Shown piece by piece: positions 23,593-31,716 of a DNA stretch of 64,000 nt (within the stretch, counting starts at the first letter, position 1; every line of letters begins with the position of its first letter). The stretch spans positions 82,340 through 146,339 of the forward strand of contig MFQZ01000001.1 in assembly GCA_001784435.1 (NCBI GenBank). Direction: 5' to 3'. The stretch is from Candidatus Magasanikbacteria bacterium RIFOXYC2_FULL_42_28. GTDB taxonomy: Bacteria > Patescibacteriota > Patescibacteriia > Magasanikbacterales > GWA2-37-8. Below the pieces are notes generated by a model. The model had not been told where the DNA came from. It saw only the letters and a list, made by a program, of their open reading frames with translations, and made no database searches. Made by a program: the position numbers and the translations under genes.

Positions 23593-24906
23593 TTATTTTT
23601 TTATAATTTTCTTTACCGCGGAAAAAAGATTTTTTGCCAGTAGTGGTCTAACCACGATTTTATAATGCCCATCTTTTAGGGCATACCCAGTTTTTACCCC
23701 AATAAATTTTAGACCAGCTCGCTGGGCGAGTTCGTAGTCGGCGGTGCGGTCGCCTATCGTGTAGCTTTTTTTTAAATCTATATTAAAATCTTTTGTTGCC
23801 AATTTAATCATATCGATTTTTGGTTTTCGGCAGCGGCAAACTATTTTATATTTTTTATTTTCGCCAGGGAATCCTTTGTCCGGGTGATGGGGACAAAAAT
23901 AAATCGCATCCAGCTTGGCGCCGGTTTTGGCCAATTCAGTTTCCATTTTTTTGTGGATCTCAAGTAGTTCCTCCATAGTACAAAAACCTTTGGCAACAAC
24001 AGGTTGGTTGGTGATTACTATTGCATAATAACCACTATGATTTATTTTTTTTATGGCCTCGACTGAACCCGGCAATAATTCAAAATTTTTTACTCGCCTT
24101 AAATCCCCCACTTCCTTATTTATTACGCCATCTCTGTCCAAAAAAATCGCCGGGCGTTTGGTACGCAAACTGCCGGCTTTAAATTTTCCGGATTTAATTG
24201 CGGCTTCTGCTTCTTGAATTCGCTGGGGCGTGCCAATGTCTTTAATATATTCCGGAGTAGAATATGCCGCTAAATTTGCGCCGCGCTTTAAAACAGTTGG
24301 AAAAACCTGCCGGCCAAAATCCACTAAAGTATTTCGGGGAATATATTTAAAAATTTTGGGACTTAAAACATAAACCGGGGTGCTGGCTAAATTCCTAAAC
24401 AGTAAATCCGGTTTATGTGGTTTGGTTAAAAAATTAGTAATTAAACCGTCTTGGCCGACTTCTACCAGATTGCTATCAAAAGGATGATCATTCGGATGCA
24501 CCGCCAGAGTTCCTACCAAACTTTTGTGTTTTATTTTTTGGAGCTTGTGATAGTTCAATAGGCGTTTAAAGTCGACGTTCATTAATTCGTCGCCATAAAC
24601 AACCAAAAAATCATTGGCCAAATATTTTTCCGCGGCCCGAACGGCGCCGGCAGTACCTAAGGGTTGATCTTCCGATATACAACGGACCGATAGCCCAAAA
24701 CGCGAACCATCGCCCGCAAATTCCCTAATTTTTTCCCCTAAATAATTAGTCAAAATTAAAACTTGGTTAAAGCCCTGGGACTTTAGCAATTTAAATTGAT
24801 GTTCCAAAAGCGATTTGCCCGCGACTTTTAGCAAGGCCTTTGGCGTAGTTTCTGAAACCACCCCCATCCTGCTGCCACGACCTCCGGCAATAATTACTAC
24901 TTTCAT
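23593..24906 (-). CDS. bifunctional D-glycero-alpha-D-manno-heptose 1-phosphate guanylyltransferase (HddC-like) / D,D-heptose 1,7-bisphosphate phosphatase (GmhB-like)
   Basis: N-terminal MKVVIIAGGRGSRMG is a sugar-1-P nucleotidyltransferase motif. The C-terminal 190 aa, AIFLDRDGVINKE...VITNQP...CPHHP...CRCRKPK, match HAD-IIIA GmhB. Confidence 0.7.
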   Translation of the reverse strand: MKVVIIAGGRGSRMGVVSETTPKALLKVAGKSLLEHQFKLLKSQGFNQVLILTNYLGEKIREFAGDGSRFGLSVRCISEDQPLGTAGAVRAAEKYLANDFLVVYGDELMNVDFKRLLNYHKLQKIKHKSLVGTLAVHPNDHPFDSNLVEVGQDGLITNFLTKPHKPDLLFRNLASTPVYVLSPKIFKYIPRNTLVDFGRQVFPTVLKRGANLAAYSTPEYIKDIGTPQRIQEAEAAIKSGKFKAGSLRTKRPAIFLDRDGVINKEVGDLRRVKNFELLPGSVEAIKKINHSGYYAIVITNQPVVAKGFCTMEELLEIHKKMETELAKTGAKLDAIYFCPHHPDKGFPGENKKYKIVCRCRKPKIDMIKLATKDFNIDLKKSYTIGDRTADYELAQRAGLKFIGVKTGYALKDGHYKIVVRPLLAKNLFSAVKKIIKK

Positions 24907-25856
24907 ACCTTTGAACTTAGTTCTTTTATAATATCGTTAGCTCCGGCTGTGAACGCTTCAACGGATGTTGGGTATTTTGGTTTCCATCCTAGATCCTTTA
25001 GCTTACTTACGTCCAACCTAACTGTGTGTACATCACCCGGCCAACCGCGAACGCCACCGGAGAATTTAATTTCTACATTTTTTAGTCCCATCGCCTCTAC
25101 TACAATTTTGGGAATATCTTTGACATAGAACGCGCCTGCGGTGCCTAGGTTAAATAAATTTACAGATCCAGACGAGTTATTTAGCCCAAACAAAATACCG
25201 TCTACGCAATCATGAACTTCGACATACGGCTTAGATTGATTGCCGTTGCCCAACACTTCTAAACTTTTTGGATTTCTCTTAAGCTTGTTATAAAAATCTA
25301 AAACCACACCATGGGTGGGCCGTTGCCCGATTATATTGCCAAAACGATATATCCACGCCTGCAAATTATAGTTATGGCAAGCGGCGGCAATAACGCCTTC
25401 GCAGGCCAACTTGCTGGCACCGTAAAAAGAAATGGGTAAGAGCGGTCCGTAATCTTCGGCCGTGGGAGATTTTGTCGCTTCGCCATAAACCACGTTGCTA
25501 GAAGTAAAAACAATTTTTTGGGTGTTATTTGCTCTCATTGCCTCTAAAACTTTGTAAGTTACCATAGTACCCTGCTCCAAATCTATGCCAGGATTTTTGG
25601 CGCTTTTGATAATGTCGGAATTGGCGGCCAAATGAAAAACCACTTCGCTGCCGGCCATGGCTTTTACTAATTCTTGGTCGTCTAACAAGTCGGCTTGAAC
25701 AAATTTGAATTGGGGGTGGCTAAAATGGTGGCTAATGTAATTTTCTTTACCCAAAGAAAGGTTGTCGTAAACAACCACCTCGTTGCCCTCTAGTATTAAT
25801 CTGTCCGTTAAGTGGCTGCCAATAAAGCCAGCGCCACCGGTGACAAAACATTTCAT
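24903..25856 (-). CDS. NAD-dependent nucleotide-sugar epimerase/dehydratase (GalE-like)
   Basis: [11 protein letters not shown]...YGASK extended-SDR motifs. 317 aa. Confidence 0.65.
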   Translation of the reverse strand: MKCFVTGGAGFIGSHLTDRLILEGNEVVVYDNLSLGKENYISHHFSHPQFKFVQADLLDDQELVKAMAGSEVVFHLAANSDIIKSAKNPGIDLEQGTMVTYKVLEAMRANNTQKIVFTSSNVVYGEATKSPTAEDYGPLLPISFYGASKLACEGVIAAACHNYNLQAWIYRFGNIIGQRPTHGVVLDFYNKLKRNPKSLEVLGNGNQSKPYVEVHDCVDGILFGLNNSSGSVNLFNLGTAGAFYVKDIPKIVVEAMGLKNVEIKFSGGVRGWPGDVHTVRLDVSKLKDLGWKPKYPTSVEAFTAGANDIIKELSSKV

Positions 25857-30680: not shown

Positions 30681-30693
30681 ATAATAACTTTTT

Positions 30694-31716
30694 TTAATTA
30701 CTGAATTTGTTGGAATTGCTGTTAAACATTATGGCCGCCCCGTTTTGGGTGGTGCTTACGTTGATTAGTTTAAAATCTTTAAGACCAACCGAAATCGCTT
30801 TGGCCTCCATTATTTGACGAATCTCGGCGTGACTTCCAGGTGGCGCGACAAAAAGGATGCACCCACCCCCGCCGGCACCCAGCACTTTGCCGCCCCAAGC
30901 CCCGGCCGCGAGGCCGGACTCGTAGAGAGCGTCAATGCCAGAATTACTAATACTGCTGACTAAACTTTTTTTCCGCAACCAATTTTCGTGGAGTTGGTTG
31001 GCCAGCGCTTCCATGTTGCCGACGAGCAAACTATCCCGAAATTTATAAACCGAATCGGACATTTTTTTGTATTCTATTAATTTATTTTTGATGTTGGCGG
31101 ATTGCTCGGCGAGCACCGCGCTGGCACTCCGGCTTTGCCCGGTGTAAAAAACCAAAATATGTTCTTCAAAATTGATTAGTGTTTTGTAATCCAAGAGGAC
31201 GGGCTCTACTGTTACCGTTTCGTCGGGATTGAACACAAAGATATTAAATCCGCCATAAGCGGCAGCGTATTGATCTTGCTTGCCTATAGGTTCTTTCATG
31301 ATGTCAATCTCCAACCGGCAGGCCGATCTGGCAGCTTCTTCTTTGCTAATGGTTTTTCCTAAAAAGGCGTTAAGGCCTTTAACCAACGCCACCGCGAAAC
31401 TGGCAGACGAGCCAAGACCGGTGCCGGCCGGCACATCGGCAAAACTGCTTACTTCTATCCCCTCTTTGGTTAAGCCAAAATCCAAAAACGCTTCGCGAAA
31501 ATGATTGTGTTTTATTTCGCTGGGGTGATTGACCGATTCGTTCTCGCTGTATTTGACGATAAATTTGCCCATTTTGTAAGAATTATTGATGGCAAGATAG
31601 ACAAATTTATCAATCGTGGTAGAAATAACGCGCCCCGGGTAAGAGCGGTAAAAATCGGGCAAATCGGTACCGCCACCAACGAAACTGACACGCATGGGGG
31701 CTCTAACTAAGATCAT
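30694..31716 (-). CDS. GHMP-family sugar kinase (D-glycero-alpha-D-manno-heptose 7-phosphate kinase, HddA-like)
   Basis: N-terminal RAPMRVSFVGGGTDLPDFY. GHMP ATP motif PAGTGLGSSASFAVA. 340 aa. Confidence 0.7.
   Translation of the reverse strand: MILVRAPMRVSFVGGGTDLPDFYRSYPGRVISTTIDKFVYLAINNSYKMGKFIVKYSENESVNHPSEIKHNHFREAFLDFGLTKEGIEVSSFADVPAGTGLGSSASFAVALVKGLNAFLGKTISKEEAARSACRLEIDIMKEPIGKQDQYAAAYGGFNIFVFNPDETVTVEPVLLDYKTLINFEEHILVFYTGQSRSASAVLAEQSANIKNKLIEYKKMSDSVYKFRDSLLVGNMEALANQLHENWLRKKSLVSSISNSGIDALYESGLAAGAWGGKVLGAGGGGCILFVAPPGSHAEIRQIMEAKAISVGLKDFKLINVSTTQNGAAIMFNSNSNKFSN

Follow-up and report, generated by a model that had tools for sequence, protein, structure and literature searches.

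A split transketolase-like gene pair in a Magasanikbacteria surface-glycan locus is most likely the core of a separate conserved cassette and not a source of heptose precursor

Why would a surface-glycan locus carry a transketolase of its own? The question is posed by a 64,000-nucleotide stretch of the genome of Candidatus Magasanikbacteria bacterium RIFOXYC2_FULL_42_28 (contig MFQZ01000001.1, positions 82,340 to 146,339), referred to here as the window, whose own numbering is used for its genes; the same contig is also present in ENA sample ERZ27254748. From approximately 3.3 kb to 51.5 kb the window is almost wholly one minus-strand run of tightly packed genes. Pfam and NCBIfam scans identify a locus of the surface-glycan type, with Gmd and Fcl, a Wzm/Wzt exporter, Ugd, UXS (UDP-xylose synthase), an AsnB-type amidotransferase, several methyltransferases and many glycosyltransferases of families GT2, GT4, GT10 and GT11. 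Two parts of this locus concern us here: a set of genes for a nucleoside diphosphate (NDP)-heptose, and a transketolase split over two genes, TK-N for the thiamine diphosphate (ThDP)-binding subunit and TK-C for the subunit with the Pyr and C-terminal domains (Table 1). The initial annotation, whose open reading frames (ORFs) are all found at their coordinates on the minus strand, had placed both parts in one operon and suggested that the transketolase could supply the heptose pathway with its precursor, sedoheptulose-7-phosphate. Is the pair really a heptose-precursor enzyme? And if it is not, what is it doing there? The distribution of the genes and a remodelled active site indicate that the pair is most likely the core of a separate conserved cassette, formed by TK-N, TK-C and a UXS-like short-chain dehydrogenase/reductase (SDR), here called SDR-A.

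With which genes does the pair travel? TK-C homologues run into the thousands, at 60–74% identity and across phyla (candidate phyla radiation (CPR), Omnitrophota, Proteobacteria, Verrucomicrobia, Bacteroidota, Firmicutes and others). When genomes were scanned, one for each species, 240 sites were confirmed; 79 loci were retrieved with their flanks and analysed by tblastn with every protein of the window, and by a separate de novo clustering of the locus ORFs. TK-N adjoins TK-C in all 79. SDR-A lies directly downstream of TK-C in 63 of them (median identity 49%), and the loci that lack it have a classical SDR or a zinc-dependent alcohol dehydrogenase (Zn-ADH) instead, so that a reductase accompanies the pair always and a reduction step seems obligatory. 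After SDR-A there usually come an Fcl-like SDR and then a 311-amino-acid class-I methyltransferase, with GT10, DUF268 and GT11 genes downstream (GT10 in 14–16 loci), and in about 21 loci Wzm–Wzt stand directly upstream of TK-N, with GMD–FCL further upstream. The commonest order is GMD-FCL-Wzm-Wzt-TKN-TKC-SDRA-FCL'-methyltransferase-GT10, an architecture that the window shares. Grouping the loci by whichever gene comes next after TK-C puts 47 of them into the window's subtype, and among the 30 of these that are full-length a true GMD (at least 300 bits) is found in 12 and Fcl-like genes in 22. The heptose genes have few homologues in the retrieved loci: GmhA occurs in 3 of the 79 loci, the GHMP kinase in 4 (and in 1 of the 47) and the nucleotidyltransferase–phosphatase fusion described below in 3–6, and not one of the 47 has a gene for a SIS-domain isomerase, GmhB, a PfkB kinase or a transaldolase. 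The pair always sits inside glycan loci and, in the 47, never beside pentose-phosphate genes. Loci without gmhA (76 of 79) retain transketolase homologues in this same arrangement, a result that the initial annotation had listed as refuting its idea and which speaks against a role in supplying sedoheptulose-7-phosphate. TK and heptose genes lie in the same-strand run, but the TK genes form a separate, tightly packed sub-block (a 2-nt gap, an ATGA junction at which the start of SDR-A overlaps the stop of TK-C, and a 1-nt gap), 8.9 kb and nine genes upstream of the heptose kinase. Public gene calls for TK-N and TK-C of the window use later start codons; the family alignment, with invariant M1, R2 and Q4, favours the longer, 293-amino-acid TK-C.

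Could the pair nevertheless work as an ordinary transketolase? Its fold, ThDP/Mg motif, activating Glu and four donor-side His are those of E. coli TktA and of the split transketolase of Carboxydothermus hydrogenoformans (6yak/6yaj), which is divided into the same two genes. TK-N scores 222 bits against 6yak; TK-C, in contrast, scores only 85 bits against the bona fide 6yaj, close to its scores against DXS. TktA (from NC_000913.3) and the Carboxydothermus enzyme served as the reference alignment, with TktA numbering. H26, H66, H100, D155, N185 and H261 are retained in 64–70 of 70 TK-N family members, and TK-C retains R358, E411, F437 and H473; the ThDP/Mg motif, the cofactor-activating Glu and the donor-side His, with H473 counted among them, are present in 64–70 of 70 TK-N and in 70 of 70 TK-C sequences. 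The other side of the active site differs from the canonical enzyme. H461, D469 and R520 are replaced throughout the TK-C family by G, L and E, and the GGSADLAPS385 loop has become GDIGV(W/F)GF (GDIGVWGF in the window); among R358, S385, H461, D469 and R520 only R358 remains. In the E. coli and yeast enzymes H461, D469 and R520 bind the phosphate of the substrate and, on the acceptor aldose, the C2-hydroxyl. Because the donor residues are kept and the phosphate and acceptor residues replaced, the TK-like enzyme probably still forms dihydroxyethyl-ThDP and no longer handles ordinary sugar phosphates, which again argues against sedoheptulose-7-phosphate supply. The family can be recognised by the signature VG(A/G)SYDYA(A/S)LG(C/A)TH(H/Q) and the motif VGASYDYAALGCTHH.

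The residue calls in TK-C come from ungapped HMMER pairwise and localpair alignments together with a motif count, which found GEDG in no TK-C family member. A mafft genafpair alignment that puts D469 opposite the family's Asp104 was rejected, as it misplaces the genuine Carboxydothermus transketolase in the same way. The similar PDB scores raise the question of whether TK-C is DXS-like; this was also rejected, since the Asp of the DXS GxDG motif is absent too and the donor-side His of TK-N are of the transketolase type. Split transketolases with related motifs are found outside the family. One, on a Streptomyces clavuligerus megaplasmid (L092, 8254-9897), has a TK-C with GGSYDW...THM and YVRLSLQQ that lacks H461, D469 and R520, and adjoins genes for a condensation domain, an MFS transporter and a dioxygenase. 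Another, on a Desulfobaculum bizertense plasmid (L091, 8142-9819), has a TK-C of 42% identity and lies in a GT2/ABC/glf glycan locus. Judged by their motifs, both define a wider non-canonical transketolase clade.

Does the heptose cassette, for its part, travel with a transketolase? Homologues of its fusion protein number at least 7,912 at E≤1e-30, mostly 425–450 amino acids long with both domains present, and are named variously 'D,D-heptose 1,7-bisphosphate phosphatase' or 'HAD-IIIA hydrolase'. Four independent loci were inspected (L085, L086/L087, L089 and L090); they comprise two JGI contigs, one of them marine, a Planctomycetota-type contig and a Doudnabacteria metagenome-assembled genome (MAG) that came up twice. 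All four have the order SDR-fusion-GHMP kinase-SIS, with the SDR directly upstream of the fusion, and none has a transketolase within 7 kb of the cassette. In the window the SDR–fusion junction is retained as an ATGA overlap, and the module (31716-23593) is interrupted by a GT2 gene, which begins inside the 3' end of the GmhA-like gene, by an RmlD-like SDR and by two Lys-containing DegT aminotransferases. The fusion architecture and the heptose cassette are thus common and widely shared, not special. The G+C content is 0.42–0.44 over the heptose block (24000-32000), 0.42 at the TK genes (40000-42000) and 0.33–0.38 in neighbouring glycosyltransferase regions, a contrast which fits a mosaic locus of imported cassettes. 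We consider it highly likely that the two cassettes, heptose and TK, are independent of each other.

What chemistry might the TK cassette carry out? The surrounding genes lead to GDP sugars. By family match, Gmd and Fcl would synthesise GDP-4-keto-6-deoxymannose and GDP-L-fucose, and the NUDIX gene, resembling GDP-mannose mannosyl hydrolase (Gmm), together with the GT10/GT11 genes also points to GDP-sugar chemistry. The gene that follows SDR-A is assigned to the ColD/E1-type 3-dehydratases, pyridoxal phosphate (PLP) enzymes, because its product has a DegT fold in which His stands where the Schiff-base Lys would be (FSFYWGHHITTVEGG, aligned to FSFFSTKVMTTGEGG in the neighbouring aminotransferase) and has RfbH as best family match. 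Dehydratases of this Lys-to-His type are found in 10 other TK loci, all ten with the same His; the gene stands directly after SDR-A in two of them (L008, L040), and a GMD-ColD-FCL triad lies by the cassette in two more (L036, L071). Since the ColD-like gene of the window adjoins the TK/SDR-A genes, its product may be diverted to the TK-like enzyme. SDR-A itself conserves all the catalytic residues of UXS, namely the SSE (Ser-Glu) motif, YxxxK and Arg. Gmd, a ColD-type dehydratase and SDR-A, as one would look for in ThDP-dependent C-branching, are all present in the window, and the same partners recur in related loci. The scheme that we propose is as follows. Gmd, with or without the ColD-like enzyme, would make GDP-4-keto-6-deoxy- or GDP-4-keto-3,6-dideoxy-mannose. 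TK-N/TK-C would transfer a two-carbon ketol unit onto this GDP-4-keto-(3,)6-deoxyhexose and SDR-A would reduce the product, and the constant reductase partner fits a ketol product that is then reduced. Methyltransferases and GT10/GT11 enzymes would finish the branched sugar and transfer it. The gene content, the conservation of both cassettes and the altered residues are seen directly in the sequences; what the TK-like enzyme acts on, where its C2 unit comes from and is attached, and what SDR-A does are predictions throughout. To the explanation as a whole, in which the window is a mosaic surface-glycan locus built from independent, widely circulating cassettes and exported by Wzm/Wzt, C2-branching included, we give a probability of roughly 0.5. 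The branching mechanism taken by itself is tentative, at a little under even odds, and it is more tentative still that TK-N/TK-C/SDR-A would be the first transketolase-type enzymes to act on nucleotide sugars, giving unseen hydroxyacetyl- or dihydroxyethyl-branched or C2-extended sugars. Such sugars would then be found in ABC-exported surface glycans of CPR and many other phyla, maybe as the terminal residue read by the Wzt domain.

Is there a precedent for such an enzyme? A literature search for a described role of transketolase genes in O-antigen, capsule or heptose clusters gave nothing specific, and the only relevant source found is a review (PMC12247030). In the YerE/YerF system that it describes, a 4-keto-3,6-dideoxy sugar is first formed, then given a carbon branch and finally reduced. 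That system (acting on CDP-4-keto-3,6-dideoxyglucose, for yersiniose A) resembles the window in having a ThDP enzyme by an E1/ColD PLP 3-dehydratase and a reductase in an O-antigen-like locus; related sugar-branching ThDP enzymes are ErwE and the alpha-KADH2 type of aldgamycin and kibdelomycin. It differs in that the ThDP enzyme of the window is a two-gene member of the transketolase superfamily, not of the decarboxylase/acetolactate synthase or E1 type, and that the context is GDP, not CDP. The conserved donor-side His lead us to predict a dihydroxyethyl (glycolaldehyde) unit, and not an acetaldehyde unit. Another parallel is given by the split-gene transketolases predicted, although never demonstrated, to carry out hydroxyacetyl branching of keto-sugars in miharamycin and amipurimycin, with predicted split transketolases also in 13 Streptomyces gene clusters (PMC12247030, section 2.3 for the former). 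The likeness to the window lies in a sugar-tailoring cluster and a proposed keto-sugar acceptor; these are actinomycete secondary-metabolite clusters, whereas the window's family belongs to Wzm/Wzt surface-glycan loci of many phyla. One Streptomyces split transketolase carries the SYD[YW] motif as the window's family does, and likewise lacks H461, D469 and R520. The GDP-colitose pathway (Gmd, ColD, ColC) is also comparable, as the window has Gmd, a His-for-Lys 3-dehydratase, an Fcl/ColC-like SDR and a Gmm-like NUDIX. Here, however, the ColD-like gene comes 1 nt after the TK/SDR-A genes and not after a ColC gene.

Several points weigh against C2-branching of a GDP-4-keto sugar. Ketones are poor transketolase acceptors. 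In most of the full-length loci of the subtype (over half) the sampled 20 kb contain no GMD, and GDP-4-keto-6-deoxymannose cannot then be a universal acceptor unless those genomes make it elsewhere. The full UXS set of SDR-A means that this enzyme could create a 4-keto-pentose instead of reducing a TK product. ColD-like C3-dehydratases of Campylobacter jejuni also act on GDP-6-deoxy-4-keto-heptose (PMC10440746), so the acceptor in the window could be heptose-derived. The accessory block upstream of TK-N could instead serve to activate a free sugar that the TK-like enzyme had produced. Among its genes are a 113-amino-acid cupin, two tandem nucleotidyltransferase-like genes (43666-45244) and a 146-amino-acid ORF with no family match, in which a GDPD-like HRG motif is seen by eye only. 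Finally, there is a sister subtype, found in five CPR loci (L065, L066, L067, L072 and L078) with the TK-C motif GASYDMASWGCTHQ. Its order is classical SDR-CTP_transf_like (cytidylyltransferase-like)-Zn-ADH-TKN-TKC-PfkB kinase, the kinase being fused to a cupin in some, with genes for a GmhB-like HAD protein, a SIS protein, a transaldolase and two GT9 heptosyltransferases nearby. An ADP-heptose-type gene set and a transaldolase stand here by a non-canonical TK pair, and this position among heptose genes indicates some evolutionary link to heptose in the TK clade, be it supply or modification. The link does not carry over to the window's subtype.

How do the other explanations compare? That the pair is a working pentose-phosphate transketolase, making sedoheptulose-7-phosphate for GmhA in an organism of reduced metabolism, would suit a small-genome CPR host, the match of TK-N to a verified split transketolase with all donor-side His kept, and the heptose and transaldolase genes around the sister subtype. 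Lincomycin offers a precedent, as there a locus-encoded transaldolase feeds an octose route of GmhA/HddA/GmhB/HddC-like enzymes. The 47 loci of the window's subtype without such genes, the heptose cassettes with no transketolase nearby, the replaced H461, D469 and R520 and the packing of the pair with a UXS-like SDR and a ColD-type dehydratase, far from the kinase, make this very improbable. The same replaced residues would suit a non-phosphorylated substrate, and one can imagine that the TK-like enzyme begins a de novo pathway, in which a C2 ketol and a small non-phosphorylated or unusually substituted aldehyde give a rare ketose that the cupin isomerises, the beta-PGM-type HAD protein phosphomutates, the nucleotidyltransferase-like genes activate and SDR-A tailors. 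The accessory block lies directly upstream of TK-N, and in the sister subtype the pair is flanked by the PfkB kinase and the cytidylyltransferase-like gene. Outside the window, though, only L005 and L024 have homologues of the block's cupin, HAD and nucleotidyltransferase genes close to the pair, and kinase or nucleotidyltransferase homologues are nearly absent from the window's subtype (0–2 of 47), so most cassettes would be unable to activate a free sugar; moreover, the conserved partners (Fcl-like, UXS-like SDR and ColD-like) are all nucleotide-sugar enzymes. This pathway is unlikely.

The remaining two explanations change the acceptor. If an SDR turned an NDP-hexose or NDP-heptose into an aldehyde by oxidising a hydroxyl, either primary or on a side chain, the TK enzyme could add C2 to this aldehyde, the natural kind of transketolase acceptor, and give an NDP-octulose or NDP-nonulose for later reduction or transamination. 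SDR-A, a classical SDR or Zn-ADH does flank the pair in every subtype, and the heptose genes of the sister subtype would suit a heptose-derived acceptor. UXS-type extended SDRs, however, act at C4 and not at C6 or C7, and the recurrent ColD-type dehydratases require a 4-keto-6-deoxy sugar, whose C6 offers no free primary hydroxyl, so chain extension is quite unlikely. Or could the acceptor be no sugar at all? The pair would then move a C2 unit from a ketose to a non-sugar acceptor, to end up as a glycolyl group on one of the glycan's amino sugars, much as TK-like systems load glycolyl units in quinocarcin and naphthyridinomycin biosynthesis. The S. clavuligerus split transketolase is next to a condensation-domain gene and not to sugar genes, and the three DegT-family enzymes of the window imply that amino sugars are made. 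Yet the surroundings of the pair in the 79 loci show no conserved lipoyl/E2-like protein, acyl carrier protein or acyltransferase, and the DegT homologue by the TK pair is a dehydratase, not an aminotransferase; we see little chance for this one. Branching of a GDP-4-keto sugar is the explanation that we prefer.

What does the heptose cassette itself encode? The known GDP-heptose pathway consists of a SIS isomerase, a GHMP 1-kinase, a HAD-IIIA 7-phosphatase and a sugar-1-phosphate nucleotidyltransferase (PMC10680097), and by family match the window has candidates for the same four activities. The alpha-type route proposed in the initial annotation, with a GHMP kinase and a fusion of nucleotidyltransferase and GmhB, does appear to be encoded, and the kinase class is as expected: it has the HddA/WcbL-type GHMP fold and not the PfkB fold of HldE, with no PfkB domain seen by Pfam. 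The best NCBIfam model of the kinase is HddA and its top PDB matches are heptokinases (WcbL 4usm/4usk at 155 bits, 3k85 and 4n3o; E 3e-44). For the SIS protein gmhA is the best model and every top PDB match is a phosphoheptose isomerase; its site, however, is His/Asp/Glu/His and not the His/Glu/Gln/His of GmhA (E65 to D, Q172 to E), and the same two changes are found in the cassette SIS proteins of L085, L086, L089 and L090. A Candidatus Magasanikbacteria MAG encodes a protein with 100% identity to the fusion (NCBI A3J93_01090). The fusion's C-terminal HAD-IIIA half carries the DRDG motif and the CxH...CxC zinc loop of GmhB-type phosphatases, and its top PDB matches are all GmhB (107 bits). 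For the N-terminal half HddC is not the best match; mannose-1-phosphate guanylyltransferase, MurU and UDP-glucose pyrophosphorylase models score equal to or above it, and the top PDB matches are a mixture of UDP, GDP and MurU-type transferases. GDP is one candidate for the nucleotide of the heptose product. All four matches fall under the curated NCBIfam cutoffs (105 against 209 bits for gmhA, 146 against 600 for HddA, 157 against 178 for GmhB and 70 against 300 for HddC). Compared with the known pathway, then, the window differs in these scores, in the fused phosphatase/transferase, the Asp/Glu-variant SIS protein, an obligatory GalE-like SDR and a CPR host without lipopolysaccharide. SDR and PLP tailoring enzymes alongside are a feature shared with the C. 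jejuni heptose loci. The GalE-like SDR has no dehydratase Asp/Glu pair (TSSNVVYG, YGASK) and is a candidate NDP-heptose C4 dehydrogenase, epimerase or reductase, and both DegT aminotransferases retain the Schiff-base Lys, with motifs SFFADKTITTGEGG and SFFSTKVMTTGEGG. With the known pathway as the obvious model for the module, the GalE-like SDR and the aminotransferases would yield an oxidised or aminated heptose.

Table 1. Features of the window and of related loci, with the family matches on which the names rest
Feature	Coordinates	Strand	Basis
TK-N, ThDP-binding subunit, transketolase-like	41476-42267	minus	Pfam Transketolase_N, 129 bits
TK-C, Pyr and C-terminal subunit	40592-41473	minus	Pfam Transket_pyr and Transketolase_C
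SDR-A, UXS-like extended SDR	39564-40595	minus	Top PDB match UDP-glucuronate decarboxylase, 97 bits
ColD/RfbH(E1)-type PLP NDP-4-keto-6-deoxyhexose 3-dehydratase	38405-39562	minus	Pfam DegT; NCBIfam RfbH 214 bits, cutoff 423
NUDIX, GDP-mannose mannosyl hydrolase-like	37094-37561	minus	Pfam NUDIX; NCBIfam GDP-mannose mannosyl hydrolase, 58 bits
GT10 fucosyltransferase-family glycosyltransferase	36044-37090	minus	Pfam Glyco_transf_10
Accessory block: beta-PGM-family HAD, cupin, two nucleotidyltransferase-like genes, 146-amino-acid ORF, WavE	42260-46201	minus	Pfam/NCBIfam
Wzm, partner of Wzt	46206-47024	minus	Pfam ABC2_membrane
Wzt ATPase with C-terminal glycan-binding domain	34771-36039	minus	Pfam ABC_tran and Wzt_C
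Gmd	48353-49381	minus	NCBIfam gmd 567 bits, over 415 cutoff
Fcl	47413-48384	minus	NCBIfam Fcl 472 bits, cutoff 500
GHMP-family kinase, HddA/WcbL-type heptose-7-phosphate 1-kinase candidate	30694-31716	minus	Pfam GHMP_kinases_N and _C
SIS-domain GmhA-like ketose-phosphate isomerase	30075-30680	minus	Pfam SIS_2 and SIS
GT2 glycosyltransferase within heptose block	29050-30099	minus	Pfam Glycos_transf_2, 132 bits
RmlD-like extended SDR, putative 4-ketoreductase	28143-29012	minus	Pfam Epimerase and RmlD_sub_bind; NCBIfam rmlD 55 bits
DegT-family aminotransferase pair	26980-28131, 25853-26983	minus	Pfam DegT_DnrJ_EryC1, 308 and 324 bits
GalE-like extended SDR	24903-25856	minus	Pfam Epimerase
Sugar-1-phosphate nucleotidyltransferase fused to GmhB-type phosphatase	23593-24906	minus	Pfam NTP_transferase (2-238) and HAD (251-434)
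TylC3-type sugar C-methyltransferase	17869-19116	minus	Pfam Methyltransf_14 and Methyltransf_13
GMD-family paralogue	16937-17866	minus	Pfam GDP_Man_Dehyd; gmd model 195 bits against 415 cutoff
Sister-subtype spans	L065 6549-12669; L066 6954-11638; L067 6876-12194; L072 7449-19112; L078 56-14004		

Other genes of the locus extend this picture. The GMD-family paralogue does lack the catalytic Glu, as the initial annotation had noticed, since ASSLLFG aligns with ASTSEMFG of GMD. An identity as RMD (GDP-4-keto-6-deoxymannose reductase) was rejected, as the protein is nearer to GMD (183 bits) than to solved RMDs (54–64 bits), and it is a candidate Glu-less GMD-family reductase or epimerase. Together with the TylC3-type methyltransferase and Gmd it looks like a route to a GDP-6-deoxy-3-C-methylhexose of the virenose or evalose kind. 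At the distal end of the locus a gene of the UDP-glucose dehydrogenase family adjoins a canonical UXS (3350-5675), for UDP-xylose synthesis; this UXS is a paralogue of SDR-A, with 27% identity. Just after wzt there is a 464-amino-acid protein (33373-34767) whose N-terminal half is weakly SGNH/GDSL-hydrolase, whose C-terminal half has no assigned family, and which could be an O-acyl-handling or chain-terminating enzyme. The 623-amino-acid AsnB-type glutamine amidotransferase lies inside the locus too (20847-22718), and enzymes of this type usually amidate uronic-acid or nonulosonic-acid carboxylates of surface polysaccharides. Flanking the locus, an AbiEii-family nucleotidyltransferase toxin of 275 amino acids and its upstream 217-amino-acid partner, which has no family match (1691-3176), are a probable type IV toxin-antitoxin pair. 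And where would the finished glycan go? CPR bacteria lack an outer membrane, so it is presumably anchored on a wall polymer or a surface protein. A 704-amino-acid Wzy_C protein, resembling O-antigen ligases and O-oligosaccharyltransferases, is encoded within 49385-63075, followed by large surface proteins at 51.6-63 kb: one of 1206 amino acids with LTD, one of 738 with fn3 and three PG_binding_1 domains, and one of 1349. In a CPR host these genes suggest attachment to surface protein or wall polymer, not to lipid A.

What does the locus tell us about these bacteria and about the family? The heptose part is routine and says no more than that CPR bacteria, too, can have a common NDP-heptose cassette. 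The TK-like cassette, conserved at about 60–70% identity across phyla, in at least 240 species-level genomes and thousands of metagenomic proteins, and with a remodelled active site, is another matter: a widely distributed transketolase-derived cassette probably performs new nucleotide-sugar chemistry. Its genes, which are annotated 'transketolase', could as a consequence be miscounted as pentose-phosphate capacity in automated metabolic reconstruction of CPR genomes. If the cassette does branch or extend nucleotide sugars, this would be a new reaction type in glycan biosynthesis, it would give a tractable enzyme system for the long-standing proposal of transketolase-mediated sugar branching, and it would predict new surface sugars in uncultivated bacteria.

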